DNA of 53,808 nt from UHGV virus genome UHGV-0110229; one strand, 5' to 3'. Within the stretch, counting starts at the first letter, position 1; the number at the start of each line of letters is the position of its first letter. The DNA is from a virus. The translations under genes and the position numbers were made by a program. A model generated the notes under the pieces. That model had not been told where the DNA came from. It searched no databases and saw only the letters and a list, made by a program, of their open reading frames with translations. Below are positions 1 through 53,808 of this stretch, piece after piece.

Positions 1-1200
1 ATGCTTACAGATACCAAACTAAGAAACATCCACGGCAAGCCATACGACGGCCCGGAAGAAGTACCGGATGCGGGCGGATTGTCTGCCAGGATAAGCCCGC
101 GCGGAGTTATATCTTTCCAGTATCGCTACCGATTCAACGGCAAGCCTCGACGGATGAAGATCGGCACATACGGAGAAATAACACTTAAAGAAGCCCGCGC
201 GGCGGTGGCTGAACATAAGGAAGTGTTAAACTCAGGACGAGATCCATCAATCGTAAAAAGAATGCACTTTTCCCGCGTTACGACACGGGCAACGGTTGAG
301 GATATTGTCAGGGAGTACATGGAATCACCGCAGGCAAGAAACATGGTTAACTATAAGCAGGTTGAAGCGATGTTGAATAAGCACGTCATCAGGCCATACG
401 GTGTCTATATAGTCGATGATATGGACGCTATGATGTGGGAGGGTGTTTTTAGAAAGGTGGCTAATGGTGGTGCACCAGTTCAGGCGGGCATAGTTCTCAA
501 CAGAATGAAAGCGGTAATAAAATACGCCATGCGTCGCCGCCGCGTGGATCGTGACGACATATCGTTACTACGCGTGAAAGACGTTGGTAAAAACCCGGCG
601 CAAGGGAAGCGGGTTTTATCAATACAGGAGATTCGCCATCTAATCAGCCTTATAGACAGTTCAAAAATGGCGCGTCTAAATCAGATATTGATGAAACTGA
701 TTATATTCACCGGATGCAGGACAAGCGAGCTAACAAACGCAAGGCGAGAACATTTCGATCTTGATAACTGCGTGTGGACTGTGCCTGGTGCATTGAGTAA
801 GAACAGAAACGAGTTTAAACGCGGTTTATCCGACGTTAGCGTCGATTTATTGCGTGAGGCTATGGATCTGCATAGCTTTGATTTTGTCTTCGTTCCCGTT
901 CTTTCTGGAAGGGATGAGGCGGTGGACAGAAGCGTACCGAAAACAGCGGCAAGGGATTTAATGATGAGGATGGGCGGCGAGCCGTGGTCGTGTCACGATC
1001 TACGCCGCACCGTGAGGACAAACCTTTCAGCGCTTGGCGTTGCGCCTCACGTCGCTGAAAAGGTTTTGGGGCATAAGCTGGCGGGGATGTTGGCTATATA
1101 CGATCAGTATGACTATGTGAGGGAACAAATAGAGGCGATGAATAAGCTGGCTGATTATTACATGAAGCCCATTGATTTACAAAATGAAATAACATCCTGA
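1..1200 (+). CDS. int: Tyrosine recombinase / phage integrase (P4/CP4-57-like, arm-binding N-terminus)
   Basis: 399 aa ORF; catalytic-type motifs TGCRTSEL, HDLRRT, LGH and C-terminal Tyr (AIYDQY). ORF starts at window base 1, so the true 5' end and att site cannot be checked. Confidence 0.85.
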   Translation: MLTDTKLRNIHGKPYDGPEEVPDAGGLSARISPRGVISFQYRYRFNGKPRRMKIGTYGEITLKEARAAVAEHKEVLNSGRDPSIVKRMHFSRVTTRATVEDIVREYMESPQARNMVNYKQVEAMLNKHVIRPYGVYIVDDMDAMMWEGVFRKVANGGAPVQAGIVLNRMKAVIKYAMRRRRVDRDDISLLRVKDVGKNPAQGKRVLSIQEIRHLISLIDSSKMARLNQILMKLIIFTGCRTSELTNARREHFDLDNCVWTVPGALSKNRNEFKRGLSDVSVDLLREAMDLHSFDFVFVPVLSGRDEAVDRSVPKTAARDLMMRMGGEPWSCHDLRRTVRTNLSALGVAPHVAEKVLGHKLAGMLAIYDQYDYVREQIEAMNKLADYYMKPIDLQNEITS

Positions 1201-1376
1201 TAACGGTAAAGAGATCCGCCGCGCTTTAATGCTGGCATCCCCTTAACAGGTTCAGGGAAAGGAGTTCCCGCATCTTTCCATTTTTTAACGAGCTTAAAAA
1301 AGGCGGACTTACTAAGCCCGCCCAACATTTTTTGCACTTGCTCACGATTAATAAGTATTGTCCCGATCTTATCCAT
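1158..1376 (-). CDS. xis: Excisionase-like HTH DNA-binding protein (Xis/AlpA family)
   Basis: 72 aa; excisionase-like pattern (FPEPVKG..R..YRYQDV); convergent with int, 3' ends overlap by 43 nt. Confidence 0.5.
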   Translation of the reverse strand: MDKIGTILINREQVQKMLGGLSKSAFFKLVKKWKDAGTPFPEPVKGMPALKRGGSLYRYQDVISFCKSMGFM

Positions 1377-2038
1377 TATCTTTTCCCCGTGAATTCAACA
1401 TGTCCGATACATCCATCAATAATAGCTTGCGCCATATTGCGATAATCGCACGAAAAATCGTTGTCGTGGTTAAAGTCAATCTCTTTTGCCGCGTCTTCAC
1501 CCATGACATTGATAGCAAGTGCAAGCGCGATTTCAGATAGTGCCTTTTCTTTCGGGTCAATGTGAATGCGGTAAGAGTATTGTTTCCATGCGATTGCTGT
1601 TTCAATATCTGATACTAATTTACTGTGAGCGATAGCCCAATTATCACCGAGATATAAAAACTTGACGACATCAAGAACCGTTCCGCTGGTTACACCCATA
1701 CAATCAAGCCACACATTAACAGGAGGTTTATCACCTGCGGCCCATTCCGTTTTTTCTGGTTGTTTTTCGCAGTCATGCCGCTCATCTTCGATTAATTCAT
1801 CAATGATCTCACTTTCTTTATTCATGCCGTCATCATCCTTATTCGATAAATTAGCGTATTTATCAAATTTCCAGCTTGCAGCCATAACCGAATAAGTGCC
1901 GCCAGTGTCAGCGCGAACACCCAATAGATAGTATGATCCAAAATTATATTCTGTGCGGCATGTTGTTACCTCAAACGATGGGTAACATTCAGGGTTAGTG
2001 CGATGGCTAATCACGCCAATTGCTTTAAGTTTATTCAT
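1376..2038 (-). CDS. Hypothetical protein (distal gene of leftward early operon)
   Basis: 220 aa ORF, acidic central region; no family recognised. Confidence 0.4.
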   Translation of the reverse strand: MNKLKAIGVISHRTNPECYPSFEVTTCRTEYNFGSYYLLGVRADTGGTYSVMAASWKFDKYANLSNKDDDGMNKESEIIDELIEDERHDCEKQPEKTEWAAGDKPPVNVWLDCMGVTSGTVLDVVKFLYLGDNWAIAHSKLVSDIETAIAWKQYSYRIHIDPKEKALSEIALALAINVMGEDAAKEIDFNHDNDFSCDYRNMAQAIIDGCIGHVEFTGKR

Positions 2039-2052
2039 TTGCTTATCCTCAA

Positions 2053-2229
2053 TTACGCCACCGTTACATTGTCAACTTTGATAAAATATTCAGGATGGTT
2101 TTCTATTTCGTGCTTGAAGTGTGCGTGACACAATCGCCAATCACGCGCCTGGTTGTGAAAGTAATAAACATATTCGCCATCAATCTTATACAAAATTCCA
2201 GTAGGTTTAGCCATATAATAACGAGCCAT
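2053..2229 (-). CDS. Hypothetical small protein
   Basis: 58 aa from ATG at 2229..2227, overlapping the ninB stop (TAATG coupling); longer 76 aa version in the ORF track. Confidence 0.3.
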   Translation of the reverse strand: MARYYMAKPTGILYKIDGEYVYYFHNQARDWRLCHAHFKHEIENHPEYFIKVDNVTVA

Positions 2230-2660
2230 TATTGCCCCCAGCGTTTTATAAATTCCTCGTTTAACTTCGTATCGCCAGACCACTGAACACCGTGTTCAGC
2301 GCCGAACGAGTAGATCAGTTCGATTAATTCGCTAAATTCTGATTTACTCATCCGGCTGGTTGATGTTCCCAGCACAACAAAACCTGATTTATCCAGGTTA
2401 GGGACAACGCCATATTTCTTAAGCCCGGCAGTGAATACCGCCTTCCAGTCTTCCGGCGACAGCTTTTTGCCGTACCAATTAACCTGATCGCTAACGTCTG
2501 TCAGCAGCGCCCAAAGTAACGCGTTTTGACTCAGCGAGCGGGTTTTCTCCTGGATGGTAATGACCAGCGGGCTTTTGCTATCAGGCAGGATTTCCTTTAT
2601 CTGCCTGATAGCGTTTTCTTTTACGGCATCGTTGACTATTTCAAATCTTATTTGCCTCAT
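2229..2660 (-). CDS. ninB: NinB/Orf recombination mediator
   Basis: 143 aa; close match to lambda NinB as recalled (FEI..NAI..I.EILPD...P.VVTIQE..RSL.QN..LWA.L.DVS.QV.W.G..L..E.WK.VFTA.LK...VVPNL...GFVV.G.STSRM...EF.EL.ELI..FG.E.GV.WS). Confidence 0.8.
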   Translation of the reverse strand: MRQIRFEIVNDAVKENAIRQIKEILPDSKSPLVITIQEKTRSLSQNALLWALLTDVSDQVNWYGKKLSPEDWKAVFTAGLKKYGVVPNLDKSGFVVLGTSTSRMSKSEFSELIELIYSFGAEHGVQWSGDTKLNEEFIKRWGQ

Positions 2661-2854
2661 GATACACCGTTACTATTTTTCCACTGTGCCCGCGCATACA
2701 TGATCGCCCGCAAAGAAATTAGGCGCGAGCTTGTCATGAAAGCGCTTTTTAAGTACCTCATATCAACAACAACAGGCTTATCAGGATCGTCGCCGCGCAT
2801 GTATTCCGCAATTGTGCTTAAGTCTTCCACGGTCAAATCTAATTCCCTATTCAT
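2657..2854 (-). CDS. Hypothetical protein
   Basis: 65 aa ORF; 4-nt overlap with ninB start. Confidence 0.35.
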   Translation of the reverse strand: MNRELDLTVEDLSTIAEYMRGDDPDKPVVVDMRYLKSAFMTSSRLISLRAIMYARAQWKNSNGVS

Positions 2855-2863
2855 GGCCGCCCC

Positions 2864-3070
2864 TTACACAATCCGCATTGTGTTTCGTAACTCACCGCGC
2901 AGCGCCTGCAAAGCGTAACGAATAGGCACAAAAGCCCGGTTAAATTTTACATGCTTATACTTGCGCATTAATGGAGGCGTATAAACCATCGTGCCGCAAC
3001 GATCGCATGTGAATTTAAAGTGAGATTCGTCAATAAACGTTTCAACTGAATAAAAAATTACCCGTCTCAT
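2864..3070 (-). CDS. Hypothetical small protein
   Basis: 68 aa ORF in the operon. Confidence 0.3.
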   Translation of the reverse strand: MRRVIFYSVETFIDESHFKFTCDRCGTMVYTPPLMRKYKHVKFNRAFVPIRYALQALRGELRNTMRIV

Positions 3071-3624
3071 AATTCCAACCCCGTTTCTCCGTTAAGTTTT
3101 TCAATCTCAAATACTGGTTTATCAGGTAGCAGGTAGTTATTTTTCCGGTACTCGTTCAGGCGGCTGTCAAAGTCAAACGCCAAATCATTGGCGTGACCGA
3201 ATCGCCCAGGTTTAAACAGTGAGTAAAAATTAACCCCATGCCTATTTGGATCAACGCAAAGCGTTTCATCAATCACCATTAAACGCAGAGTACGAGAAAG
3301 ATAATTCCACGGTATACCCGTTTCAGCGCTAATGTCGCGCATACGCTTTTTAACGCTGTAGTCACCAAATAACGACGCGACACGCTCACGACGTTCAGCA
3401 TATAACTGTTTAATACGATAACCCAGCAGGCGGCGGCGGCGTCCAAAGCATGTATACACGCGCTCGACGATGCCGTTTTTTATTAAGTGTTTAATTGTCT
3501 CAGGCATGATTCCATACTTATCATACCCAGCCAATAACCCTGTTTTCTGGCGTAACTGGTGCATTGTTGCGATGCCATCAAGTTCAAGGATATTGATAAT
3601 TTTTGTTTCAATTTCAGCGCTCAT
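3067..3624 (-). CDS. Hypothetical protein
   Basis: 185 aa ORF tightly packed between helicase and nin-like genes. Confidence 0.4.
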   Translation of the reverse strand: MSAEIETKIINILELDGIATMHQLRQKTGLLAGYDKYGIMPETIKHLIKNGIVERVYTCFGRRRRLLGYRIKQLYAERRERVASLFGDYSVKKRMRDISAETGIPWNYLSRTLRLMVIDETLCVDPNRHGVNFYSLFKPGRFGHANDLAFDFDSRLNEYRKNNYLLPDKPVFEIEKLNGETGLEL

Positions 3625-3700
3625 TTTTAGCCTCGTTTAAAACGCGATAACAGCCACCAGAAAGCGGTAAACTTTCCGGTAAGCCGTTTGCTCAGATTAA

Positions 3701-5116
3701 TTAAAAAGATGTGTTATTCTGATTGTTTCGTTGGTTAAAACGGCTTGTGCGATGATTCATTGACTGAATACACGCGGCGGCGGCGCGAGCCTGGTCGCAT
3801 GGCAAGATATTACCGTTGTCATCAAACCGCTGGTAAACAGTTCCAGACTTACCATGACGGTTTTTTGACACAATGATTTCCATATATTCGCGGGCAACAG
3901 ACTGTTCATCGTAATATCCATCTCGGTAAACCATGATTATCCTGTCGGCATCTTGCTCAAGGTTGCCAGAATCACGAAGATCAGAATTGTTAGGGCGCTT
4001 GTTCGGTCGTTCCTCAACGCGGCGTGACAGTTGCGCCAGCGCCAACACTGGTACACGCAATTCTTTCGCCATCATCTTCAACGACCACGACAATTGCCCT
4101 ACAGCGAGATCGTGACGTTCGGCCTTAGCCAGCTTCATTAACCCGATGTAGTCAATCATTACCATGCCCAAATTTGGGTGATCCTGTTTCATGCGTTCCG
4201 TTGTTGCGCGTATTTCCTCAACCGTTAACTGCGACGCGTCAACGATCCACACATCAAGGTTAGCAAGTGCGCTCATGCCCTGGCCGACATGCGCCCACCC
4301 CTCATCATCAAGTTTTACCGGATTGCGCAGGCAGTCGGTTGATAAATTACCAGCGCCAGCGATGGCGCGTTCAGTCATCTGATCGAGTGACATTTCAAGC
4401 GTGAAGAACAAAACGCCAACCCGCTGATCTTTACTGCCAGGGTAAGGGCGTTCAGCGGCAGCGCGGGCAATTGCAAGCGCCAACGCAGATTTACCAGACC
4501 CAGGACGTCCAGCTAAAAGCACCAAATCAGTAGCGTTAATGCCGCCCAACATCTCATCGAGTGGATCTATCCCTGTTTTGATGTTGTCAGAATTAACACC
4601 GCATTCCATGCGCTTGCTTAAAACGTCCGTATATTCCTGTACCGCATCACGCAACAGAACAGGAATGATCTTATCTTTCGTTACCTTTAATTTTGAATAC
4701 CGGGAATCAAAATCTTTCATCGTCTCTTTGACGACCTCAAGCGTCCCCGTCTCCAGTTTGTAGCGCATATCGTCGATGAGTTCCAACATCTGCCGCCGCT
4801 GGTGCTCTTCACGTAGTAGCTGTGCGTATCCCTTAAGGTTGGCAGCAGAAGGGCACGAACGCGCCGTTTGCATTAGGGGCACGAAATTTTCATTGCCAAT
4901 CTCATCGCCAACAAGCAATGCGTCTATCAGATTCCTGTTTCTGGCTTGCGCCCGGATAACTTCAAACGCACGTTTATAAAGCGGGATCGTGAACACTTCA
5001 GGATCAAGCGTGGCGAGAACATCTTGCGCGTTAGGAGTAAGGCCACCCAACAACAGCCCGCCGATAACTGACGCCTCACGTTCCTGCCGTAGTGAGTTTA
5101 TTTGCTCAGTTACCAT
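3701..5116 (-). CDS. Replicative DNA helicase, DnaB family
   Basis: 471 aa; Walker A GRPGSGKSALALAIA; DnaB-like motifs (IDYIGLM, LAQLSR, NRHG). Confidence 0.85.
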   Translation of the reverse strand: MVTEQINSLRQEREASVIGGLLLGGLTPNAQDVLATLDPEVFTIPLYKRAFEVIRAQARNRNLIDALLVGDEIGNENFVPLMQTARSCPSAANLKGYAQLLREEHQRRQMLELIDDMRYKLETGTLEVVKETMKDFDSRYSKLKVTKDKIIPVLLRDAVQEYTDVLSKRMECGVNSDNIKTGIDPLDEMLGGINATDLVLLAGRPGSGKSALALAIARAAAERPYPGSKDQRVGVLFFTLEMSLDQMTERAIAGAGNLSTDCLRNPVKLDDEGWAHVGQGMSALANLDVWIVDASQLTVEEIRATTERMKQDHPNLGMVMIDYIGLMKLAKAERHDLAVGQLSWSLKMMAKELRVPVLALAQLSRRVEERPNKRPNNSDLRDSGNLEQDADRIIMVYRDGYYDEQSVAREYMEIIVSKNRHGKSGTVYQRFDDNGNILPCDQARAAAACIQSMNHRTSRFNQRNNQNNTSF

Positions 5117-42657: not shown

Positions 42658-43362
42658 ATGCGCAGCATACCTACAGAAATGATTATTGATTCCGTGGATG
42701 CCGGAGTCGGCGCGGTCATTGACTTATTTGAACTGGACCTCACGCCCCTGGGTGGCGAGGTTATCCGCTTCCATTCCGGCGCGAATGGTTATTACGGCCC
42801 TGTTATCTGGAAGGGATTGGCTTACAACAGCTACCCAATCGAGGCTACCGGCTTCGAAATGAAAAACGAAGGCGTTTACTCACGCCCCCAAATGGTCGTA
42901 GCCAACATTGGCGGCCTAATCACTGGGATGAATAACGATTTTAACGACCTGCGAGGAATGAAGGTTACGCGCCGCCAGGTGGAAGTAAAATACCTGGATG
43001 CTGTTAACTTCCCCAATGGCAACCCGGATGCAGATCCGTCTATCGAGGCGGTATCTTTTTACGTCGTTGAGGCGATGAGCGAAGAAACAGCCGACCAGGT
43101 GCAATATGAACTGTCAACGCCAATTGATGCTGACAAGGCTGTTATCCCTGGGCGCACAATCCTCGCTGACGTTTGCCAGTGGCAATATCGCGGCGACGGT
43201 TGCAGATACAGTGGCGGCCCTGTAGCCACTGACAAAGACGAGCCAACCAGTGATCCGAAGCTGGATAAATGCAGCCACCGCCTGAGCGGTTGCCGTTTGC
43301 GATTCCCGCGCCCGAATCCGTTACCGATTTCATGTTTCCCCGGATCAAGTAAGGTCGGTTGA
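42658..43362 (+). CDS. L: Minor tail protein L
   Basis: 234 aa; strong resemblance to lambda gpL as recalled including the C-terminal Cys cluster. Confidence 0.8.
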   Translation: MRSIPTEMIIDSVDAGVGAVIDLFELDLTPLGGEVIRFHSGANGYYGPVIWKGLAYNSYPIEATGFEMKNEGVYSRPQMVVANIGGLITGMNNDFNDLRGMKVTRRQVEVKYLDAVNFPNGNPDADPSIEAVSFYVVEAMSEETADQVQYELSTPIDADKAVIPGRTILADVCQWQYRGDGCRYSGGPVATDKDEPTSDPKLDKCSHRLSGCRLRFPRPNPLPISCFPGSSKVG

Positions 43363-44096
43363 TTATGGCACTTGAAGATAAAATGATTCGCTATGCAGCG
43401 GCCCACCCTGACGAGGAAGTATGCGGGCTGGTGATAGATAATGATTATTTTTACCCGTGCTTAAACGTGTCTGAAACGCCTCACAACAGCTTTAAAATCT
43501 CGCCTGACGATTATATCAAAGCTGACGAATTAGGCGTTATAACAGCCGTTTTTCACTCCCATACTGACGATTCGTTGGTATTGTCAGCACTGGATCGGCA
43601 GCAACAGGTTATTTCCGGCCTGCCGTGGTATTTGTGTTCCGGTGGCAGGGTAAGAAAATTCCGCCCGGTTGCGCACCTGTTGGGCCGTAAATTTGAGCAC
43701 GGGAAAACGGATTGTTACTCGCTTTTTCGTGACGCCTATCACCTTTGCGGCGTGGATCTACCGGACTTTGAGCGCCACGATGGGTGGTGGCTGCGTGGGG
43801 AAAACCTGTACATAAAAAACCTGCCATTGAACGGGTTTTTCATGGTTGACGCGCAAAGTATTCAGCCTGGTGATGTGATTATTCGCCAGCCGTTTAAGGG
43901 TGCAGATCCATGCCACGCGATGATTTACCTGGGTGACAACACTGTTTTGCATCATGACAATGCCGGACTGTTAAGCCGCCGCGAGCAAATGCGGCCCGCG
44001 TATGTTCGACAGACTAATTCAATATGGAGATCTGACAAATGCTCAAATTTAGATTTACGGGCAATCTTCGAAGATATTACGGCAAGGTGTGTTTAA
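43359..44096 (+). CDS. K: Tail assembly protein K (MPN/JAB + NlpC/P60-like)
   Basis: 245 aa; HSH..D JAB-like motif (AVFHSHTDDS) and Cys/His peptidase-like C-terminal part. Confidence 0.8.
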   Translation: MIMALEDKMIRYAAAHPDEEVCGLVIDNDYFYPCLNVSETPHNSFKISPDDYIKADELGVITAVFHSHTDDSLVLSALDRQQQVISGLPWYLCSGGRVRKFRPVAHLLGRKFEHGKTDCYSLFRDAYHLCGVDLPDFERHDGWWLRGENLYIKNLPLNGFFMVDAQSIQPGDVIIRQPFKGADPCHAMIYLGDNTVLHHDNAGLLSRREQMRPAYVRQTNSIWRSDKCSNLDLRAIFEDITARCV

Positions 44097-44569
44097 ACGT
44101 TGATACGCCAGCGCAAGGACTTAGCATATTGACCGCGCAGGATCAGGAGTTCAAGAAGGCTTTTTTAAATACACCTTTGCGCTTACGAATTGCCGGAAAA
44201 GATTATGACGAAAAGACGGCCCCGGCAGCGGTTAATAGTAAATACCCTGACGGAACTACAGTGATTGTTGCGCCAGTGGTGGAAGGTGGTATTGCTGGGA
44301 TTGGCGTTGTAGGCTGGATTTTAATCGGTGTTTCTGTTGTTAGCGTTGCTTTCTCGATCTTTATGTCACGCAACATGAAGATAAAAACATCAGCAGAAAG
44401 CGCACAAGATAACACCATATCTAACAACACATACACCAGCATTGAGAACAAAGTAGGACAGGGTAGACCAGTGCCAATCCTGTTGGGTGAAATGAAAATA
44501 GGTTCAAATGTCGGGTCGTTAGGCATAGACACAAGCAACAACAGAGACGCCCTTGACGTTGTAAGTTAA
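44039..44569 (+). CDS. I: Tail assembly protein I
   Basis: 176 aa; lambda gpI-like layout with hydrophobic central segment; overlaps the K 3' end. Confidence 0.7.
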   Translation: MLKFRFTGNLRRYYGKVCLNVDTPAQGLSILTAQDQEFKKAFLNTPLRLRIAGKDYDEKTAPAAVNSKYPDGTTVIVAPVVEGGIAGIGVVGWILIGVSVVSVAFSIFMSRNMKIKTSAESAQDNTISNNTYTSIENKVGQGRPVPILLGEMKIGSNVGSLGIDTSNNRDALDVVS

Positions 44570-44582
44570 CAGGAGAAAAACC

Positions 44583-47500
44583 ATGAGTAGCGGCGGCGGC
44601 AAAGCCAAAACACCAACATTATTAAACGATAACCTGTTTCATAAACAGTTTTATCGTGTTTTGGACATTCTCAGCGAAGGCCCAATCTACGGCCCTGTAA
44701 ACCAGAAAGCGCCATTAAACAGCGTAATGCTTAATGACAGCCCAATCACTGACGCCAACGGCGGCACATCGGTCCCTGGCGTTAGCGTGGCGTGGCGTAA
44801 TGGTACGGCTGACCAGTCACCAATCAACGGCTTCAACGCCATTGAATCAACCGTTATTGTTAACGCAAAAGTGACTCACGATACGCCAATAATCAGGACT
44901 GTTTCAGATCCAAACGTTAACCGCGTAAGGCTGAATCTTGGCGTTGATTCTCTGGTTCAGTCAGATGATAAGGGCAATCAATACAATACATCTGTTGTGT
45001 TGATGGTTGATGTTAAGCCATCATCGTCAACAACGTGGTCACTGGTCAAAGATATTACCATTGGCCCTGGTAAACAAAGCGGCGAGTATATGGAAGCGCA
45101 CATCATCCAAGCGCCGGATGAAAAACCGTTTGATATTCGCGTTCGTCGCGTAACGCCAGACAGTAAAAGCGATCTACTTCGCAATGACACCAGGTGGAGC
45201 AGTTACAGCGAGATAATAGACGATAACTTGTCTTATCCCCATACCGCTGTAGCAGGCGCGGTAATTGACCACGATCAGTATACCGACACGCCGACACGCA
45301 CCTATCACATGCGCGGCCTGATTGTTGACGTGCCTGATAACTACGACCCGGAAACACGCACATACTCAGGTTTATGGCTTGGTGGCTTCAAAAAGGCATA
45401 CACCAACAACCCTGCATGGCTTTTCCGGTATCTGGTGAAAAATGAACGCTTCGGGCTTACCCGCCACGCCGGTTACATTGACGTTGATGATGGCGCATTA
45501 TATGTGCTTTCTCAATACTGCGACCAGTTGGTAAACGACGGTTACGGCGGCCTTGAACCACGCATGACGCTTAACGCTTACATCACTGAGCAAATTAGCG
45601 CCCGCGACTTGCTGGACAACATTGCAGGCATGTTCCGTGGTATCGCGTTATGGGACGGGCAGCGCCTTACGGTGATGATTGATGCACCGCAAGATCCAAT
45701 TGCCACCATCACGAATGCAAACGTCGTTGATGGCGCATTTACTCGTTCAAGTATCGCCCGCGCGGAATCTTACAACGCTGTGATTGTGTCATGGACTGAC
45801 CCGGAAAACGGTTGGGAACAATCAAAAGAATACGTAGCAGATGATGAACTGATCGCCCGCGATGGTTACAACGAAACCACTTTGGAGGCTTTTGGTTGCA
45901 CGTCACGCGGGCAGGCGTACCGCGCTGGCAAATGGCTGATAGAAACAGCAAAACGCGAACCCTCAAAATTCACGTTTAAAATGGCCCGTGACGCGATTCA
46001 CTTCACCCCAGGGGATATTATCGAGATACTCGACAATAACCGCGCTGGCGCTCGTTTAGGTGGTCGCATCGTGGCGAATAACGGGAAAGTGATAACCGTA
46101 GACAAGGTTGATTCTGACCTGGTGGCGGCTGGTGACACTATCAGCTTACTGGACAGCGACGGTAAGTTTAAAAAACATCAGATCACTGGGGTTAACGGAA
46201 ACAATATTACCCTTGCGGCAGCGCCCGCATGGATTCGTAACGGAACCGTATTTGCCGTTTCAACTGAATCCGCAAAACCTGTTCTGTGCCGAATTACCAG
46301 CGTAGCGGAAACCGAAAATAACAGCGTGTACACCATTGAGGCTGCACAGCACGATCCTCACAAACAGGCTGTAGTTGATGAAGGCGCAATCTTCGAGGTA
46401 AACAACGACACGCTTAATCACTTCCGCGTGCCGAACATTGAAAATCTGAAGGTGTTAAATGTTGGTTCTGAAACTGTTCAATGTCGCGCAACATGGGAAA
46501 CACAGACGACAACGCATCGCCTGACCTTTGAAATCCGCGTATATAACACCGAAGGCCGCATTGTGGCAACTTATGAAACCACGAATTACCGCTATGATTT
46601 TTATGGCCTCGACGCTGGCAGCTACACGCTTGGTATTCGCGGGCGTAATGACACTGGCATGAAGGGTGCGGAAAGTATTGTAGACCTGGTTATTGGTGCG
46701 CCAGCGGCCCCGATTGGAGTCAATTGGGTTCCAGGTGTCTTCCAGGCAACGGTATATCCGATCAGCAAAACAACCCTTACCACTGATACGGCATATGATT
46801 TCTACTACTCAGGTGAAAATCAGATCACAGATCCATCAAAAGTAACCACGCTGGCGCAATTCACCGGGCGCGGCTACCAATGGACTTTTGGCGGTATGAA
46901 TACGGGACACACTTATTACGTCTATGTGCGCACGCGTAATGCCTTTGGTGTGTCAGACTTCGTTGAGGCATCAGGTAAACCGACTGAAAACTTCGACGAA
47001 ATCAGCGACTACGTGATGAAGGATGTCATGGAGTCAGAACAATTCAAGGACATGATTGGCGACATTAAAGATCTTGGCGACCGTGCCGACCTTATCGAAA
47101 GCGCTACAAATGACCTTAAAAACGCTACTGACAACCTCAAAACTGCAACTGACACCCTGACAAACGTCACTGACGAATTGAGGACTGATACTGACAACCT
47201 GACAAACATCACTGAGGATTTAAGGACTGACACTGACAGCTTAATCACAGAAACAGGAGTCATAAAAGCTGACACGGACACACTGAAAAAAGAAACGGAA
47301 GATCTCTACAAAAAAGTTAAAGAGAACGCCGATGATATTGGTCAGCATGAGTCCAGAATCGACTTATTAGAAGTGTCAAGCGAAAAAGTTGACAGCGAAC
47401 TGGCGCAGGCAAAAGCAAGCCTGCAAAACGCTTCATTGGCGCTTATCAACAACTCGCTTGCACAGACAAACACGCGCGTAACCCTTACCGCCCAGTATAA

Positions 47501-50024
47501 GAAAGGCATGACGGAAACGAAAGCGGAAATTGACCGTATTGACAACGTTATCGCTGAAGAGAAAAAAGCGACAGCGGAATCACTGGAAACCATCACGGCA
47601 GAAATGAACACGATGGATTCCAACCTTAAAGGTCAGATTTCCAGCGTGGAACGTGCAGTGGCTGACGAGGCCAGCGCACGCGCCGAAGCTATTAACGGTG
47701 TGAACGCCTCAATAGACAATCTCGACAAGAAAACTGACGCCAGCGTTAAACGTCTGGACCAGGCAATCGCCGATGAATCGAGCGCGCGCACCCAGGCTGT
47801 CAGCGACGTTAACGCAAGCATTTCAGCACTTGACAAGAAAACTGACGCCAGCGTTAAACGCCTTGATCAAGCTATTGCAGACGAAACAAGCGCACGCGCC
47901 GAAGCTATCAATGGGGTAAATGCCTCAGTATCAGCACTTGATAAGAAAACCGATTCAAGCATAAGCCGCCTTGATAAAGCTATTGCCGACGAAACGAGCG
48001 CGAGAACCGAAGCCATCAATGGTGTGAAGGCATCAATCTCCACACTTGACGGCAAGGTAACAAGTAACGTTAATCGCCTTGATAAAGCTATTACAGACGA
48101 AACTAAGGCACGCACTGACGCTATCAGCAGCGTTAATGCAAGCATCAGCACGCTTGAAAGCAACACTGAATCAGAGGTGAACAGACTCGACCAGGCCATC
48201 GCTGACGAGGCCAGCGCACGCGCACAGGCCATCAGTGGCGTGAAGGCATCGATAGACACCCTTGATAAGAAAACAGACGCCAGCGTTTCCCGTCTTGATA
48301 AAGCGATAGCAGACGAAACTCAGGCAAGAAGCGCCGCAATAACAGATGTTAAGGCTGATTTGACAACGCTCGAAAACAGCACAAACGCCAGCGTCAAACG
48401 CCTTGACCAGGCGATTGCTGACGAATCAAGTGCCCGCGCTGAAGCAATATCAGGCATTAACGCAGAGATCGGCAGCATCGAAAACAACGTTGACAAAAAC
48501 AGCGATGATATAAATCAGACCAAAGCAAGCCTGCAAAACGCTTCATTGGCGCTTATCAACAACTCGCTTGCACAGACAAACACGCGCGTAACCCTTACCG
48601 CCCAGTATAAGAAAGGTCGCAAGGAAACAAACGCGCAGATTGATCGTATTGACAGTGTTATCGCTGAAGAGAAAAAGGCTACAGCCGAAGCAATTGGCGT
48701 GGTAAAAGCATCGATCACCGATCTTGACAAGAAAACAGACGCCAGCGTTTCCCGCCTTGACAGAGCGATTGCAGACGAAACAAGCGCACGCAGCGAGGCT
48801 ATCAGCGGCGTGAACGCATCAATTTCCACCATTGATAGTAATGTGAAAAGCAATATTACCAGGATGGATAAGGCTATCGCCGACGAAACAAAAGCACGCG
48901 CAGACGCAATAAGCGGCCTTAATGCATCGCTTACCAGTACGATCACCTCGAAAGTATCTGAGGTATCAACGGCACTGGCTACGCATGAGGAATCAAGCGC
49001 TGAAAAATTCAGCCAGATCTCAGCGTCATTCGAACTAGTAGACGCAAGTATCACTGAATGGTCGCAGGCGATGGCTACGGCTGACGAGGCGTTATCAACG
49101 AAAATCGATCAGCTAACAGTGACCGTTAACGGGAATAAGACGGCAATAGAAACGACATCTAAAGCATTGACCGACTTCAAGGGCAATGTTGATGCGTCGT
49201 ACTCTATCAAGCTGGCGACCGACAACAACGGAATGAAATACGCAACAGGTATGTCGCTTGGCCTCACTGGTGACGGCACTAACTTTCAGTCGCAGTGTAT
49301 TTTCCTTGTTGACCGTTTCGTGTTAATGACCGCAGCAAACGGCACATATACAACGCCTTTCTATGTCACCAATGGCGCAATGTATGTAAGAGAAGCGTTT
49401 ATTAAGGACGGAACTATCAACTCCGCCAAAATAGCTGATCGAATACAGTCAGTTAATTACAGCTGGGAAAACGGTACAGGATGGGCGATAGATAAAGCCG
49501 GTGACGCAGTATTTAACCAGGTAACCGTAAGGGGTACGGTATACGCTTATGCTGGTGTGTTTAACGGTACTGTTTACGCAACTGGCGGTAAATTTACTGG
49601 AGCAGTTGAAGCTACAAGTTTTGTTGGTGACGTGGCAAGTATGTCAGTGATAAACGAGGATGTATTTCCGTCAATGAGGGGAAATGGCAGCAGGCGCGTT
49701 TCGAAAACTTATCTTGATTCAAGTTCATCAAGTTTATCAAAAACAGTTTACGTTATGATTCCGTATGATTTGTCATACCATACATATAGTGAATCTTCTC
49801 GCATCAATGTAACTATAAATATAAGCGGACACACAAAAACAATTAATATAGAAAGGCCAGCATCAGGCCAAGCAATGTCATCTGTCGCGGTGCACTGTGT
49901 ATCTGGCCTCACATACCCAACAATTACAGTCGAGGTGACGGAAAACTTTACCAATACATCTAATGCAGCAATAAGAAAACCAGGTTTAATACTTATAACA
50001 AGAAGTTCAGGAACATGGATATAA
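44583..50024 (+). CDS. J: Tail tip central fiber / host specificity protein J, extended with coiled-coil repeat region and distinct C-terminal domain
   Basis: 1813 aa; N-terminal part lambda J-like; then about ten 36-aa tandem repeats and a separate C-terminal domain. Confidence 0.85.
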   Translation: MSSGGGKAKTPTLLNDNLFHKQFYRVLDILSEGPIYGPVNQKAPLNSVMLNDSPITDANGGTSVPGVSVAWRNGTADQSPINGFNAIESTVIVNAKVTHDTPIIRTVSDPNVNRVRLNLGVDSLVQSDDKGNQYNTSVVLMVDVKPSSSTTWSLVKDITIGPGKQSGEYMEAHIIQAPDEKPFDIRVRRVTPDSKSDLLRNDTRWSSYSEIIDDNLSYPHTAVAGAVIDHDQYTDTPTRTYHMRGLIVDVPDNYDPETRTYSGLWLGGFKKAYTNNPAWLFRYLVKNERFGLTRHAGYIDVDDGALYVLSQYCDQLVNDGYGGLEPRMTLNAYITEQISARDLLDNIAGMFRGIALWDGQRLTVMIDAPQDPIATITNANVVDGAFTRSSIARAESYNAVIVSWTDPENGWEQSKEYVADDELIARDGYNETTLEAFGCTSRGQAYRAGKWLIETAKREPSKFTFKMARDAIHFTPGDIIEILDNNRAGARLGGRIVANNGKVITVDKVDSDLVAAGDTISLLDSDGKFKKHQITGVNGNNITLAAAPAWIRNGTVFAVSTESAKPVLCRITSVAETENNSVYTIEAAQHDPHKQAVVDEGAIFEVNNDTLNHFRVPNIENLKVLNVGSETVQCRATWETQTTTHRLTFEIRVYNTEGRIVATYETTNYRYDFYGLDAGSYTLGIRGRNDTGMKGAESIVDLVIGAPAAPIGVNWVPGVFQATVYPISKTTLTTDTAYDFYYSGENQITDPSKVTTLAQFTGRGYQWTFGGMNTGHTYYVYVRTRNAFGVSDFVEASGKPTENFDEISDYVMKDVMESEQFKDMIGDIKDLGDRADLIESATNDLKNATDNLKTATDTLTNVTDELRTDTDNLTNITEDLRTDTDSLITETGVIKADTDTLKKETEDLYKKVKENADDIGQHESRIDLLEVSSEKVDSELAQAKASLQNASLALINNSLAQTNTRVTLTAQYKKGMTETKAEIDRIDNVIAEEKKATAESLETITAEMNTMDSNLKGQISSVERAVADEASARAEAINGVNASIDNLDKKTDASVKRLDQAIADESSARTQAVSDVNASISALDKKTDASVKRLDQAIADETSARAEAINGVNASVSALDKKTDSSISRLDKAIADETSARTEAINGVKASISTLDGKVTSNVNRLDKAITDETKARTDAISSVNASISTLESNTESEVNRLDQAIADEASARAQAISGVKASIDTLDKKTDASVSRLDKAIADETQARSAAITDVKADLTTLENSTNASVKRLDQAIADESSARAEAISGINAEIGSIENNVDKNSDDINQTKASLQNASLALINNSLAQTNTRVTLTAQYKKGRKETNAQIDRIDSVIAEEKKATAEAIGVVKASITDLDKKTDASVSRLDRAIADETSARSEAISGVNASISTIDSNVKSNITRMDKAIADETKARADAISGLNASLTSTITSKVSEVSTALATHEESSAEKFSQISASFELVDASITEWSQAMATADEALSTKIDQLTVTVNGNKTAIETTSKALTDFKGNVDASYSIKLATDNNGMKYATGMSLGLTGDGTNFQSQCIFLVDRFVLMTAANGTYTTPFYVTNGAMYVREAFIKDGTINSAKIADRIQSVNYSWENGTGWAIDKAGDAVFNQVTVRGTVYAYAGVFNGTVYATGGKFTGAVEATSFVGDVASMSVINEDVFPSMRGNGSRRVSKTYLDSSSSSLSKTVYVMIPYDLSYHTYSESSRINVTINISGHTKTINIERPASGQAMSSVAVHCVSGLTYPTITVEVTENFTNTSNAAIRKPGLILITRSSGTWI
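47690..48940 (+). repeat. In-frame tandem 108-bp (36-aa) coding repeats within J, plus a 95-bp perfect direct repeat
   Basis: Repeat unit VNASIxxLDKKTDASVxRLDxAIADExSARxEAIxG about 10 times; identical 95-bp segment at 47412-47506 and 48522-48616. Confidence 0.8.
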
Positions 50025-50031
50025 AAAACAA

Positions 50032-50056
50032 CCCCGCTTCGCGCGGGGTTTTCTTT
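50032..50056. terminator. Bidirectional rho-independent terminator after J and the lipoprotein gene
   Basis: CCCCGC-TTCGC-GCGGGG with A-run upstream and TTTTCTTTT downstream. Confidence 0.65.
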
Positions 50057-50304
50057 TAGTAGTTAGCTACACAGTTAGAAGGGCTACCGATGCGGCGCAT
50101 GTTGTGATCGAGTTCGTGACACCATTGACCAGTATATGGCAGTTTTTCAGTGTCATAGACTAGATGCCCGCCACCATCATAAACAACATCTTGCGGAATT
50201 ACTCCACTATTCGGCAGGTTATGCAATGCAGCCTCTTTGTCAACAGAGCAACCAGTAAGAGCAACAGCCGCAGCGAACAAAACCACTTTGAACACGTTTT
50301 TCAT
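50056..50304 (-). CDS. Small lipoprotein moron (candidate Cor/Llp-type superinfection exclusion protein)
   Basis: 82 aa; signal peptide with lipobox LTGC; opposite strand between J and stf. Confidence 0.5.
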   Translation of the reverse strand: MKNVFKVVLFAAAVALTGCSVDKEAALHNLPNSGVIPQDVVYDGGGHLVYDTEKLPYTGQWCHELDHNMRRIGSPSNCVANY

Positions 50305-50481
50305 TTTTGAACCCTCATTCTTGTTTGTTAATCCGGTTCACCCGGTGACTTAAATATCCGGCAAAACCACATTTCGTATATTGACACAGATCAACAAATA
50401 CATTTTGTGTAAGCAGAAAATGCAACACAGATCACAAAATGGTAGAATTATTCCGTTAATTAACAAAATGGAGTCATCGAG

Positions 50482-53400
50482 ATGATTTACACAACTGGAA
50501 CAATTGCCATCAGCGGCAATACTGTTACAGGCACGGGCACAAACTTTTCCGCGCCGCTTTCTCTTATTCGTGTAGGTTGCACGCTCATTGCTGTTGGCAA
50601 CCCTGTACAGATCTTTACCATCACGGAAATCAAAAGTGGTACTGAACTGTCAGTGACGCCAGCGGCTAACCCCGCCATCCCTGCCGGGACAAAATTTAGC
50701 ATCCTGCTATCTGACTCGATCTCAGTTGATGGGCTTGCTCAGGACGTGGCTGAAACCCTGCGTTACTACCAGAGCAAAGAAACAGAAATCGCCTCCGCTG
50801 TAGAGTGGTGGGAAGATTTCGGCGGCGAAGGTCAGTTGGATCAGCTTCTTACCAACATTCGCGCAGAAACAGCACAATCAACCGCCAACGCTCAAAAAAC
50901 AGAAACTGACAAAAACGCAGCAGAAGCGTCAAAAACAGCGGCTGCAAAATCTGCCACAGCAGCGAAAACATCAGAAACTAACGCTAAGGCAAGCGAGACG
51001 GCAGCGAAAACAAGCGAAACCAACGCCAAAACATCAGAGAACAGGGCGCAAGAATATCTGAATCAGATAATAAGGTCTAACAACGCATTGGTACAATGCA
51101 ATTGGCCTGTTACAACTGAAGCCTTTGCCCGTTATGTGAAGATCGCTAAACTAACCGATCCGGGTGCAGTAAGCTGCCATTTAACACTAATGATCGCCAA
51201 TGGCGGTAACTACGGTACAAGTTACGGGAATATTGACTTTGTAGAGATCTCCGCTCGCGGTCTTAGCGATGTGGAAAGCATAACCAGTGAAAATATAACT
51301 AAATTTTTAAGTGTTCGCCGCCTCGGATCGCCTAACCTTGCTAATGACAACCAAATGCGTTACGGCCTGGTTAAAGGTGACGGCTATATCGAGGTCTGGT
51401 GCTACCAGCGAGCTTTTATTAAAGAAACAAAGGTTGCGATACTGGCACAGACTGGCAGAACTGAATTATACATTCCTGAAGGGTATGTCGTTCAGGAAGC
51501 CGAACCCGCTGGATATGTTGAAAGCCCAGCAGCAAGGATTTACGATCAGGTAAACAAACCAAGCAAGGCAGACTTAGGCCTTTCTAATGCTATGCTTATA
51601 GGCGCTTTTGGTCTTGGCGGCAGCGGTCCGTCATCAAACGGCATGATGAGCAATACAGAGCTATTAAAAGCACTGCGTGCAAAAGGTAGTCATTTCTGGC
51701 GTGCTGATAAGCCTGACGGAAGCACAGCGACACATTACGCCCACGGTTCTGGTATATTCTCTCGGTGCGGTGATACATGGTCGGCGATCAACATAGAATA
51801 CGAAAATGCCAGAGTTAAGATTTTCGCTGGCAATGATAACAAACTTGAAACTGCAACTTATGCCGTAAATGAGCTATACGGAACCAAAAATAAGCCGTCG
51901 AAATCTGACGTTGGACTTGGCAACGTAACTAATGATGCGCAGGTGAAAAAATCCGGCGATATTATGTCTGGCGACCTGGCGGTCTATAAAGATACTCCGT
52001 CACTATTCCTTAGGGCAAAAGATGGAGCAGGTGCTGCCGCTGTGCGGTTTTTCACTGATCAAAACCTGGAGCGCGGCATAATCTATGCTATTCAAAACAC
52101 TGATACGCTTGGAGAAGTTCGCATTAGGGCTAAAAACGCAAAAGGTGAAACAAACGGTGATCTTGTTGTTCGCCACAACGGGGTGGTTGAGGTTCAGAAT
52201 CTCACAGCGGCTAAAAAAGTAAAAAGCGTAAACGCAGAGCTTGCAAACACATCAACTAACACGCTTGAGAACACGTTAAAAATCAGCGGTCAACAGCATA
52301 CTCCATTACTTTTAACGCGTACCGGTTATACTGAAAACCTATCCATTGGCTTTAAGGTTGACAACCTTGATCAAAAATATCTCGGAATCAATGGCAGTGG
52401 AGATCTAGCTTTTGGTAAAAATGCTGATCATAAACAAAACAGCAGAGTGATTACGCAAGCAATACTGGATAGCGGGGTGACGGTAGGCGGCAAAACAACA
52501 TTTTCTGACCTTGCCACATTTAACGCAGGTATGGCTGGAGCAATTGAGCCTGAAAGCATTTCTGAAGTGGCTGTTGATCTTAATAATCTGACCATAAAAG
52601 GCACAGATAAAGGTTCAGTTAAATACTATCACTGCAGAACTGCCGGAGGCGGTGCAAATATTACCAATAAGCCTGCTGGCATAGGTGGTAACTTTTTGCT
52701 TCGTGTAGAGTCAATTCGTAAGATCACGGATTCAGATTATACAAACTTGCAAACCCTTGTTGGCACAGACACAAAACAAATATACGTTCGCTATTGTGAA
52801 AATGGCAATTGGTCTGCATGGAGTCAGATTGTTGTTTCAGGAAGAAATCAGGATGTAACCGTCAGGTCGTTAACCTCGACGACTCCATCAAAATTAGGTG
52901 GCGGGCGTATTGATGTGCTTGGGAGTACGTCAGATTATAACAGCATGAATTGTACCGTGCGCGGTGTTGATAGCAGCGGAACTAATTCTGCGTGGTCAGT
53001 AGGCACATCAGTAGACACTGGCAAAATGTTGTTCCTGAAAAACCACAGAAGCAGCGCTCAAGTGCTGTTAAATGGCGATGACGGCGCGGTTCAACTACTA
53101 AGCGGTACTGTCAACGGTGCTACAGCACAGGCGCTAACCATCAACAAAGATGAGGTTAACTCAACTGCTGATTTAGTAATTAGAAAACAAACAGGGACTG
53201 GCAATCGTTTTGTTTTACAGAACGCAGGTAATGCAGAACTACCGTTTTCTGTCAGTGTGTGGGGTTCCAGTACTCGACAAAACGTTTTTGAGGTTGCCAC
53301 GTCTGCTGCGTATCTGTTTTATGCGCAAAAAACGTCAGCAGGCCAGTTGTTTGATGTAAATGGCGCTATTAATTGCACAACGCTGAATCAGTCATCAGAC

Positions 53401-53808
53401 CGCGACCTTAAAGACGATATTCTCGTTATCAGCGACGCGACGAAAGCAATCCGTAAAATGAACGGATACACCTACACGCTCAGGGAAAACGGGATGCCTT
53501 ATGCTGGCGTTATTGCACAGGAAGTAATGGAGGCGCTACCGGAAGCCGTAGGATCGTTTACTCGTTACGGTGAAGAATTGCAGGGTCCGACCATTGATGG
53601 CAACGAGCTACGCGAAGAAACGCGTTACCTCAATGTTGATTATGCGGCGGTGACTGGTTTACTTGTCCAGGTGGCACGCGAAACGGATAACCGCGTCACC
53701 AAACTGGAAGAGGAAAACGCCAGCCTGAAAGCTAACATTGCCGCAATGGATGAGCGTATCGCAAAACTTGAAGCGCTTGTCAGTCAGTTGACCGGAAGCG
53801 AAGAATAA
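50482..53808 (+). CDS. stf: Side tail fiber protein with C-terminal intramolecular chaperone (peptidase S74-like) domain
   Basis: 1108 aa; lambda Stf-like N-terminal region with KTSETNA repeats; C-terminal SDRDLKDDI Ser-Lys motif and coiled-coil end; stop at the last base of the window. Confidence 0.75.
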   Translation: MIYTTGTIAISGNTVTGTGTNFSAPLSLIRVGCTLIAVGNPVQIFTITEIKSGTELSVTPAANPAIPAGTKFSILLSDSISVDGLAQDVAETLRYYQSKETEIASAVEWWEDFGGEGQLDQLLTNIRAETAQSTANAQKTETDKNAAEASKTAAAKSATAAKTSETNAKASETAAKTSETNAKTSENRAQEYLNQIIRSNNALVQCNWPVTTEAFARYVKIAKLTDPGAVSCHLTLMIANGGNYGTSYGNIDFVEISARGLSDVESITSENITKFLSVRRLGSPNLANDNQMRYGLVKGDGYIEVWCYQRAFIKETKVAILAQTGRTELYIPEGYVVQEAEPAGYVESPAARIYDQVNKPSKADLGLSNAMLIGAFGLGGSGPSSNGMMSNTELLKALRAKGSHFWRADKPDGSTATHYAHGSGIFSRCGDTWSAINIEYENARVKIFAGNDNKLETATYAVNELYGTKNKPSKSDVGLGNVTNDAQVKKSGDIMSGDLAVYKDTPSLFLRAKDGAGAAAVRFFTDQNLERGIIYAIQNTDTLGEVRIRAKNAKGETNGDLVVRHNGVVEVQNLTAAKKVKSVNAELANTSTNTLENTLKISGQQHTPLLLTRTGYTENLSIGFKVDNLDQKYLGINGSGDLAFGKNADHKQNSRVITQAILDSGVTVGGKTTFSDLATFNAGMAGAIEPESISEVAVDLNNLTIKGTDKGSVKYYHCRTAGGGANITNKPAGIGGNFLLRVESIRKITDSDYTNLQTLVGTDTKQIYVRYCENGNWSAWSQIVVSGRNQDVTVRSLTSTTPSKLGGGRIDVLGSTSDYNSMNCTVRGVDSSGTNSAWSVGTSVDTGKMLFLKNHRSSAQVLLNGDDGAVQLLSGTVNGATAQALTINKDEVNSTADLVIRKQTGTGNRFVLQNAGNAELPFSVSVWGSSTRQNVFEVATSAAYLFYAQKTSAGQLFDVNGAINCTTLNQSSDRDLKDDILVISDATKAIRKMNGYTYTLRENGMPYAGVIAQEVMEALPEAVGSFTRYGEELQGPTIDGNELREETRYLNVDYAAVTGLLVQVARETDNRVTKLEEENASLKANIAAMDERIAKLEALVSQLTGSEE

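Follow-up and report, generated by a model that had tools for sequence, protein, structure and literature searches.

A length-variable helical repeat array and a probable gene-conversion footprint in the J protein of an mEpimmI-group phage

We analyzed gene J of the virus genome UHGV-0110229 (UHGV), a stretch of 53,808 nucleotides (nt) that we refer to as the window. The gene (44583..50024, on the plus strand, as are all J features given below) encodes a tip attachment protein, or central tail fiber, of 1813 amino acids (aa), and was identified from its open reading frame (ORF), its Pfam domains and its alignment with lambda gpJ. The explanation that we hold to be very probable is that this is the J protein of an mEpimmI-group phage, that its helical shaft carries an old repeat array of variable length, and that gene conversion lies behind a perfect repeat of 95 base pairs (bp) inside this shaft.

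A lambda-type J with an expanded, repetitive shaft

Five Pfam domains in the protein exceed their curated cut-offs (FNIII-A_GpJ 88-214, Phage-tail_3 335-492, Ig_J 609-707, Ig_J_second 709-811 and Phage_Tail_Tip 1521-1658), and a phmmer search against solved structures aligned aa 1-851 with lambda gpJ 1-858 (E 4e-182) and aa 1520-1688 with lambda gpJ 843-1001. The gene order is L, K (NlpC/P60), I, J, with upstream ORFs at 42658-43362, 43359-44096 and 44039-44569; two genes upstream of J match Pfam Phage_tail_L and NLPC_P60. Both the domain set and the L-K-I-J order are those of a lambda-type J. Nucleotide similarity and synteny with mEp021-type phages include a type-C Lpp gene and a downstream fiber gene, and nt matches to mEp phages and Escherichia coli prophages lie at 84-97%, with the same gene order. 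Among phages, the six mEp members of the mEpimmI group come closest, at 81-85% nt identity across the repeats; among complete genomes, it is E. coli prophages, led by WCHEC025970 (96.7% over J nt 1-4852). The three nearest proteins (P0053-55, compared with the window J at the protein level only) are also 1813 aa long, are 97-98% identical to it and have the same receptor-binding end. Judged by domain content, gene order and similarity, the window gene is the J of a temperate E. coli siphophage that belongs to the mEpimmI group (mEp021-like).

A preliminary description of this DNA had noted that J is much longer than lambda J by virtue of in-frame helical repeats, and our analysis agrees. The expanded alpha-helical shaft (46992..49106, aa ~804-1508) lies at the site of the 53-aa lambda shaft, between the second fibronectin type III domain (FNIII-2) and the beta-prism, as placed by phmmer against lambda gpJ, by the published lambda map (PMC11101478) and by AlphaFold2 (AF2). 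Considering that it occupies the same place, we read the extra sequence as an extension of the lambda alpha-helical shaft. The protein starts with a lambda-type tail-tip hub and FNIII domains (aa 1-~800), continues with a helical shaft that takes up ~700 aa in place of the 53 aa of lambda, and leads from there into a conserved beta-prism and a swappable receptor-binding end.

The first repetitive element of the shaft is a 7-aa (21-bp) array of the form TDxLxxx, with ten heptads (47106..47315, aa 842-911), seen in a listing of the heptads and by Tandem Repeats Finder (TRF) as periods of 21 and 42 bp at 47113-47238. After a helical spacer comes a first module, consisting of an A block (A1; 47412..47507, aa 944-975, KASLQNASLALINNSLAQTNTRVTLTAQYKKG) that is the same as A1 of WCHEC025970, a linker (47508..47591, aa 976-1003) and units 1-8, each of 36 aa or 108 bp (47592..48455, aa 1004-1291). 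The linker is itself a degenerate unit in the 36-aa register, with a weak match in a profile hidden Markov model (HMM) of aa 978-999 to unit positions 11-32. A truncated unit and spacer (48456..48521, aa 1292-1313) then precede the second module, in which a second A block (A2; 48522..48617, aa 1314-1345) is followed by linker 2 (48618..48701, aa 1346-1373) and by units 9-10, again of 36 aa (48702..48917, aa 1374-1445), which were recognized by the HMM and by homology to an F2-pyocin fiber. Linker 2 is a paralogue of linker 1, with proportions of synonymous (pS) and nonsynonymous (pN) differences of 0.51 and 0.19, respectively. Finally, a degenerate helical segment (48918..49106, aa 1446-1508) runs into the beta-prism.

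The 108-bp periodicity was detected independently by TRF and by a de novo repeat search (7-8 copies of 60-75% nt identity, with units 1-8 falling into two de novo repeat families), and over both programs the copies are 60-77% identical at the nt level. An HMM derived from the units recovered ten full 36-aa units, 8 at aa 1004-1291 (61-71 bits each) and 2 at aa 1374-1445, along with degenerate partial units, and so upholds both the unit number and the consensus VNASIxxLDKKTDASVxRLDxAIADExSARxEAIxG given earlier. The accompanying claim that the extra length of J consists of this array stands only for the 360 residues of the ten units; the rest of the ~670 additional residues is made up of the 7-aa array (aa 842-911) and non-repetitive helix.

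Paralogous units within the window differ from each other at 24-42 of 108 nt, whereas a window unit is 0-10 nt away from units of WCHEC025970 and 1-20 nt away from the closest unit among the other relatives. Among the window units, pS is 0.71 and pN is 0.25. Because synonymous sites are saturated while the protein is conserved, and because paralogues are more divergent than orthologues, the array is old and under purifying selection.

Unit number varies among related phages and prophages

We compared J in 15 relatives, six mEp phages and nine E. coli prophages, writing each architecture as A for an A block followed by the number of units after it. The A8A2 architecture of the window is shared by WCHEC025970, N921, 2-331 and strain 127. 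Two blocks are also present in mEp554, mEp044 and mEp021 (A7A4), mEp010 (A4A4), MIN12 (A7A2), UMNK88 (A7A3), and NRZ96606 and strain 190 (A11A2), while N1286 (A5), mEp515 (A4) and mEp013 (A3) have a single one. Across these 15 relatives, the unit number ranges from 3 to 13; J length, the comparison of which over related prophages had been proposed as a check, ranges from 1393 to 1935 aa. Minimal full-length J proteins in the same clade (1229-1237 aa) have one unit. The heptad array differs among relatives by whole heptads only, with 2-4 in short J proteins and up to 12 in NRZ96606 and strain 190. The variable region spans ~aa 950-1475 and is followed by a conserved stretch and then by a variable terminus, which fits the published description of mEpimmI J (PMC11893012).

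The J gene of mEp515 equals that of mEp021 minus 1002 bp in frame (334 aa), with otherwise 0 mismatches in 4182 nt. The crossover falls where units 4 and 11 are homologous, and its junction is at J nt 3390-3394. Both phages are plaque-forming and use OmpA as their receptor (PMC11893012), which argues that a shaft change of 334 aa is tolerated. A map of unit types indicated that, depending on the phage, units have been gained or lost or have passed from one block to the other, and array length would thus change via homologous exchange between units, always in frame. The idea that the repeats expand and contract by recombination, put forward from the window alone, is therefore borne out by the range of 3-13 units and by this clean deletion. 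The receptor-binding type of the window was found with 9, 10 and 13 units, so that shaft length and receptor module vary independently. These comparisons show variants of 3-13 units in viable phages and in intact prophages, with no fixed link to receptor-binding type.

Many J homologues in the databases are marked as partial and end or start inside the repeats (P0001-P0003, P0006, P0012, P0013, P0016 and P0018-P0021). This argues that short-read assemblies commonly break inside the J repeat region, which should serve as a warning in their use, and that J length is under-recorded in draft genomes. Two distant tail-fiber-like proteins, P0022 (from a JGI metagenome) and P0028 (from Sphingomonas sp.), have ~36-aa repeats of the form ITGPxGxIxAAVTQLxQAIADExxARxxA, with a Gly/Pro turn per unit. 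Given that P0028 stems from a Sphingomonas genome, the ADExxAR unit is widespread outside Enterobacteria.

The shaft as a proposed length-tunable helical stalk

In a single-sequence AF2 run on aa 802-1536, the model was helical save for two interruptions, at aa 931-942 and 1335-1341, that adjoin or fall within the two A blocks (mean predicted local distance difference test score, pLDDT, 62.6). With a 21-sequence alignment, aa 1366-1504 were again modeled as helix, and the change from helix to strand came at ~aa 1505-1509. Hydrophobic residues recur with the canonical period of 3.50 in the heptad array of the window J and with one of 3.60, not that of a heptad, in the 36-aa array; unit positions 1, 5, 8, 16, 19, 23 and 34 are invariantly hydrophobic, and positions 12, 27 and 30 would complete a seam that can be read as 7+11+7+11. 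With helix predicted by AF2 and a regular hydrophobic seam (periods 3.50/3.60), a coiled coil is a reasonable prediction for the J shaft, although the 36-aa unit is a non-canonical repeat that should produce an almost straight bundle. By homology with lambda gpJ only, we infer that the shaft is trimeric. It would then form a trimeric helical stalk, the length of which may determine how far the receptor-binding domain stands from the tail tip, and which, when fully extended, would gain ~5 nm per unit. From this we infer that J functions as a length-tunable stalk.

Several points speak against this picture. Both AF2 runs were made on monomers and had a mean pLDDT of ~62, and the trimer, the extended length and a fold-back at the A blocks are beyond their reach. 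No PDB structure covers the units; PDB sequence matches reach only from aa 1366 on. Moreover, a fully extended coiled coil of ~700 aa would measure ~100 nm on a tail of ~130 nm, and the paper on the mEpimmI phages does not mention a fiber of ~100 nm (PMC11893012).

Alternatively, the 36-aa array could be a metastable spring that refolds from a coiled coil into a long beta-prism on receptor binding, with the number of units setting the stored energy or the length of the prism. Such a switch has a precedent in the F7 pyocin, in which a 163-aa coiled coil of a J-like fiber is reported to switch to a beta-prism and to power puncture (2026 preprint, PMC12874032). The shaft of lambda J itself (residues 809-861) is a three-helix bundle that flips and partly refolds to beta-sheet on LamB binding (PMC11101478). 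Indeed, aa 1366-1642 of the window J align with residues 915-1186 of the F2-pyocin tail fiber (PDB 25vf_A, E 1e-30), and the aligned region is located directly upstream of the seed beta-prism, the strands of which start at ~aa 1509. The C-proximal ~150 aa of the shaft are thus homologous to the coiled-coil region of F-type pyocins, which refolds to a beta-prism partly in lambda and wholly in the F7 pyocin, and the upstream units are paralogues of units 9-10. In addition, each unit contains the published strand pattern SxSxxMxxLxS in alternating orientation (forward at phase 29, reversed at phase 14), its matches go on at the same 36-aa spacing in linker 1, and E26 and R30 of the unit are four residues apart, as described for such regions (PMC12874032).

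The 20 matches to this pattern in aa 1004-1291, as compared to 6.1 +/- 2.4 in shuffled sequences, come from homologous units and therefore amount to about one independent unit, for which shuffling of the consensus unit gives P ~0.04. The AF2 monomer runs gave helix only, even the 21-sequence run that was aimed at the prism for units 9-10; lambda and T5 are noted not to show the extensive switch (PMC12874032); and phages with 3 or 4 units are fully infectious, so that most units are dispensable. On balance, we regard the spring as unlikely. In a further-reaching version, the metastable element would be the whole ~700-aa shaft and not just the ~150 aa with pyocin homology: a trimeric coiled coil, modular and expandable by units, that would zip up as a giant beta-prism once the receptor is bound. 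We hold this version to be somewhat less likely again. Given that the pattern statistic amounts to about one independent unit, that AF2 gave helix only and that 3-4-unit phages are infectious, we keep the whole-array switch as a minority reading. If it were true, recombination, by altering the number of units, would adjust how far the fiber reaches through O-antigen or capsule, how much energy it stores, or both, and the natural series of 1-13 units, including the isogenic pair mEp021/mEp515, would be a dose series for how non-contractile tails power penetration of the envelope.

A probable gene conversion between the two A blocks

Within the shaft, the segments 47412-47506 and 48522-48616 are identical over all 95 bp and cannot be matched one base further on either side. 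They are spaced 1110 bp apart, which corresponds to 370 codons, and are thus in frame; the exact repeat and its coordinates are as previously reported. The two copies do not bracket the array, as had been thought, since the second one sits between units 8 and 9. The segment is the only long exact repeat in the array and the longest exact homology in the gene. Downstream (3') of the exact run, ~85 bp follow at ~80% identity, while upstream (5') there is no similarity. Chance cannot account for this match: an exact 95-mer is not expected in 54 kb, and for paralogues at ~82% identity, as in the relatives, the corresponding probability is ~6e-9 (0.82^95).

In all 12 relatives with both blocks, A1 and A2 differ at 13-20 of 96 nt, as opposed to 0 of 95 in the window, and at two positions the relatives have I in the second A block but L in the first. 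The flanks of the window A2 have 5-14 mismatches to the A2 flanks of other phages and 24-39 to A1 flanks, which makes them orthologous to A2, whereas the core between them is of the A1 type. In the window, the A2 upstream flank reads …GATATAAATCAGACC, the A1-type core …TCATTGGCGCTTATCAACAACTCGCTTGCACAGACAAACACG (A2-type sequence would read …TCGATTGCGCTGATTAATAACTCAATCGCTCAGACCAATACG), and the A2 downstream flank GGTCGCAAGG…. WCHEC025970 is identical to the window over A1 and over the A2 flanks, and its 12-13 differences are clustered at 48545-48581. The proteins P0053-55 keep I1322 and I1329, where the window has L1322 and L1329. These boundaries give a conversion tract of at least 48545-48581 and at most 48522-48616 (37-95 nt).

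We thus find what a gene conversion would leave behind: paralogues that are diverged in the relatives, a short identical tract with sharp ends, recipient-type flanks and donor states in the core. The simplest reading is that the 95-bp identity reflects a recent, short gene conversion between two old, diverged copies. In the window lineage, a non-reciprocal exchange of 37-95 nt would have copied the first A block (the donor, nt 47412-47506) over the second (the recipient, nt 48522-48616), removing ~13 differences, mostly synonymous. Because most of the erased differences are synonymous, selection at the protein level cannot explain the identity. Comparable footprints were found in close relatives: unit 8 of WCHEC025970 (the counterpart of window 48395-48413) carries a patch that matches its own unit 3, and unit 9 of P0053 (aa 1370-1408) is replaced by a copy of unit 1. 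These show that similar conversions, to judge from the resulting patches, arose independently in this group. The preliminary description had also viewed the repeat as a recombination substrate, which is plausible; an exchange across the 95-bp identity would delete or duplicate 370 aa in frame and result in a J of 1443 or 2183 aa.

Some of our results do not favor such a conversion. When IMG/VR, GTDB genomes and JGI metagenomes were searched for exact copies of the converted allele, there were 0 matches, and in a megablast search of 48480-48660 against 5426 E. coli genomes there was no 100% match, the best reaching 94%. Furthermore, the donor could have been a sister or co-resident genome instead of the same molecule.

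A related scenario is that the A1-type patch was imported into the second block from another phage or prophage by recombination between genomes. The J genes of this group are mosaic, the differences between the window and WCHEC025970 are patchy (46083-46283, 48755-48800 and beyond 48983), the receptor-binding end has been swapped, and the A1 blocks of strain 127 and NRZ96606 are only 1/47 nt away from the tract. Against this, the window's own A1 fits the tract exactly (0/95 differences), and an ectopic alignment of A1 to A2 would still be required. As this alignment is needed in any case and the match to the window's own A1 is exact, the simplest donor is this gene itself or, while the DNA replicates, its identical sister copy, and we consider the import improbable.

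We also asked how real the sequence itself is. The J region of the window matches a contig of a human-gut metagenome (ERZ917870, MEGAHIT k127, 55 kb) without a difference over 9442 nt, and the exact 1813-aa protein is recorded on 4-5 contigs in ENA and JGI/IMG, although these contigs may not be independent samples. An error of assembly or consensus, in which the second copy was built from reads of the first and 37-95 nt were falsely homogenized, would be in keeping with the short-read MEGAHIT metagenome assembly of the source-like contig, with an allele that was not found elsewhere at the DNA level and with the many database homologues that are broken in this hard-to-assemble region. However, the 95-bp repeat is shorter than the final k-mer of 127, both copies have unique flanks that leave no bubble for the assembler to merge, the exact protein occurs on those 4-5 contigs from two sources, and comparable conversion patches are present in complete genomes and NCBI isolates. 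An artefact origin of the 95-bp identity is therefore unlikely, and we would give it a very small chance.

The least credible explanation, and the one originally suggested by the perfect duplicate, is a recent segmental duplication from 47412 onward, of which the 95 bp would be the still-identical remainder: the A block and linker do occur twice, in frame and at a spacing of 1110 bp, and this and the ~80% identity over the ~85 bp past the exact run would suit it. It is nevertheless contradicted: the two-block layout is common to 12 relatives from several countries in which the copies are 13-20/96 nt apart, the window A2 flanks are orthologous to the second copies of other phages, P0053-55 retain I1322 and I1329, the linkers have a pS of 0.51, and the identity stops abruptly on both sides within otherwise diverged paralogues.

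Two other sources of variation were considered and rejected. A diversity-generating retroelement, which would leave adenine-specific differences between a template and a variable repeat, does not agree with the A1/A2 differences in the relatives; these hit all four bases and are mostly at synonymous third positions (no search for a reverse transcriptase was made elsewhere in the window). A simple-sequence contingency locus, with units of 1-9 bp, does not agree with units of 21 and 108 bp that are in frame.

The receptor-binding end and mosaicism of J

Downstream of the shaft, the Phage_Tail_Tip domain (49143..49556, aa 1521-1658; Pfam E 2.4e-39) is the counterpart of the beta-prism of the lambda central straight fiber, as also indicated by the alignment to lambda gpJ 843-1001 and by predicted strands. 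It is followed by the C-terminal receptor-binding region (49650..50021), which comparison with prophages identified as a swapped module: the last 200 aa of J are 90-96% identical to those of the prophages N921, NRZ96606, MIN12 and 2-331, and are unrelated to those of WCHEC025970. WCHEC025970 is nearest (96.7%) up to a mosaic junction at ~49380-49480 (J aa ~1600-1630). Domain swapping had been tied to the 95-bp repeat in the preliminary description; the swap relative to the nearest relative lies instead at this junction, at ~49.4 kb.

In the 5' half of J, which is otherwise almost identical to that of WCHEC025970, we observed 36 differences at 46083-46283 (J aa ~500-565, in the hub region), and P0053, too, departs from the window there (K502R … T572I). 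This stretch is a further short recombination patch.

Antisense frames, regulatory elements and neighboring genes

We do not regard the two ORFs opposite the repeats, 47867-48259 (-) of 130 aa and 48515-49054 (-) of 179 aa, as genes. All relatives have antisense stretches of 115-215 aa without stops, but the lengths of these are not conserved, and no promoter-like sites were found. We judged these ORFs to be by-products, as the sense frame is poor in codons that read as stops on the opposite strand. An Rfam scan of 44000-53808 matched no RNA family. A scan of 46900-50600 for promoters and terminators gave nothing above shuffle expectation within the repeats, and its only strong hairpin was at 50030-50050. 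In the mEp records, J is annotated with minus-strand "terminators", and these coincide with weak hairpins that recur in the units. The hairpin at 50030-50050 (GC-rich, with an 8-bp stem and T runs on both strands) is likely a bidirectional terminator, and starts six bases past the J stop, between J and a convergent lipoprotein gene.

This gene (50056-50304, minus strand) encodes an 82-aa lipoprotein with the lipobox LTGC, which is identical at 80/82 positions to Lpp010 of mEp010, a type-C superinfection-exclusion lipoprotein that is reported to keep out phages using LamB, lambda among them (PMC11893012). The presence of a type-C Lpp protein hints that the window phage uses LamB; the receptor-binding end of the window is only 32-40% identical to the ends of LamB-using mEp phages, which qualifies this hint. 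Further downstream lies a fiber protein of 1108 aa (50482-53808, plus strand), with a C-terminal Peptidase_S74 intramolecular chaperone domain at aa 972-1023 and short Ala/Thr/Glu-rich repeats near its N-terminus (TRF 51003-51033); its stop is the final codon of the window. Upstream of J, mEp021 and mEp515 have an ORF of 188 aa between I and J (mEp021 locus 1123-1689, annotated as a putative HNH endonuclease; mEp515 locus 1623-2189, annotated as hypothetical), which is not present in the window or in the other relatives examined.

Comparison with known systems

In trimeric autotransporter adhesins and in streptococcal M proteins, in-frame repeats of helical stalks vary in number by homologous recombination, which alters how far the binding head projects. 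These proteins are unrelated to the window J and act in another setting, so that the analogy is one of mechanism only.

Lambda gpJ (PDB 8IYK, 8XCJ; PMC11101478) resembles the window J in the hub, FNIII-A, FNIII-1/2 and the start of the shaft over 850 aa, as well as in the beta-prism and in the neighboring genes L, K and I. It differs in that its shaft is 53 aa long (809-861), as compared to ~700 aa in the window J, that it has neither 36-aa units nor A blocks, and that its receptor-binding domain is unrelated in sequence. The F-type pyocin fibers (F2, PDB 25vf; F7, PMC12874032) are J-like, combine a coiled coil with a prism, are rich in Ala, Ser and Thr, and share an ADExxAR-type motif with the window J, in which matches to their published strand pattern are present. 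Their coiled coil, in contrast, is 163 aa long, without an obvious array of near-identical units, and the fold switch has been shown for the F7 pyocin only and for no mEpimmI phage. The mEpimmI phages offer natural shaft-length variants in which the role of this element, shared by the lambda shaft and the F-pyocin coiled coil, could be tested.

Closest of all are the J proteins of the mEpimmI group itself (mEp021, mEp010, mEp013, mEp044, mEp515 and mEp554, plus 38 prophages; PMC11893012), which have the same gene and gene order, A blocks, 36-aa units and heptad array. They have been described as differing in size and containing "repeats of different length (positions 950-1,475)" (PMC11893012). 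The window J is therefore a new allele of a family for which size variation and repeats have already been published. What sets it apart is its A8A2 allele with a homogenized second A block, which is absent from the phage, complete E. coli, IMG/VR, GTDB and JGI collections that we searched. The published account (PMC11893012) does not include the unit structure, the copy-number range, the mEp021/mEp515 deletion or gene conversion. New here are the architecture of units and heptads, the range of copy numbers, the mEp021/mEp515 deletion, the probable footprint of a conversion together with its recurrence, and the finding that the array sits at the shaft homologous to the F-pyocin coiled-coil region. 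Read in this way, the perfect repeat would be the footprint of a conversion and not a fresh duplication, and recurrent short conversions and unit-for-unit deletions are documented in a phage host-range gene.

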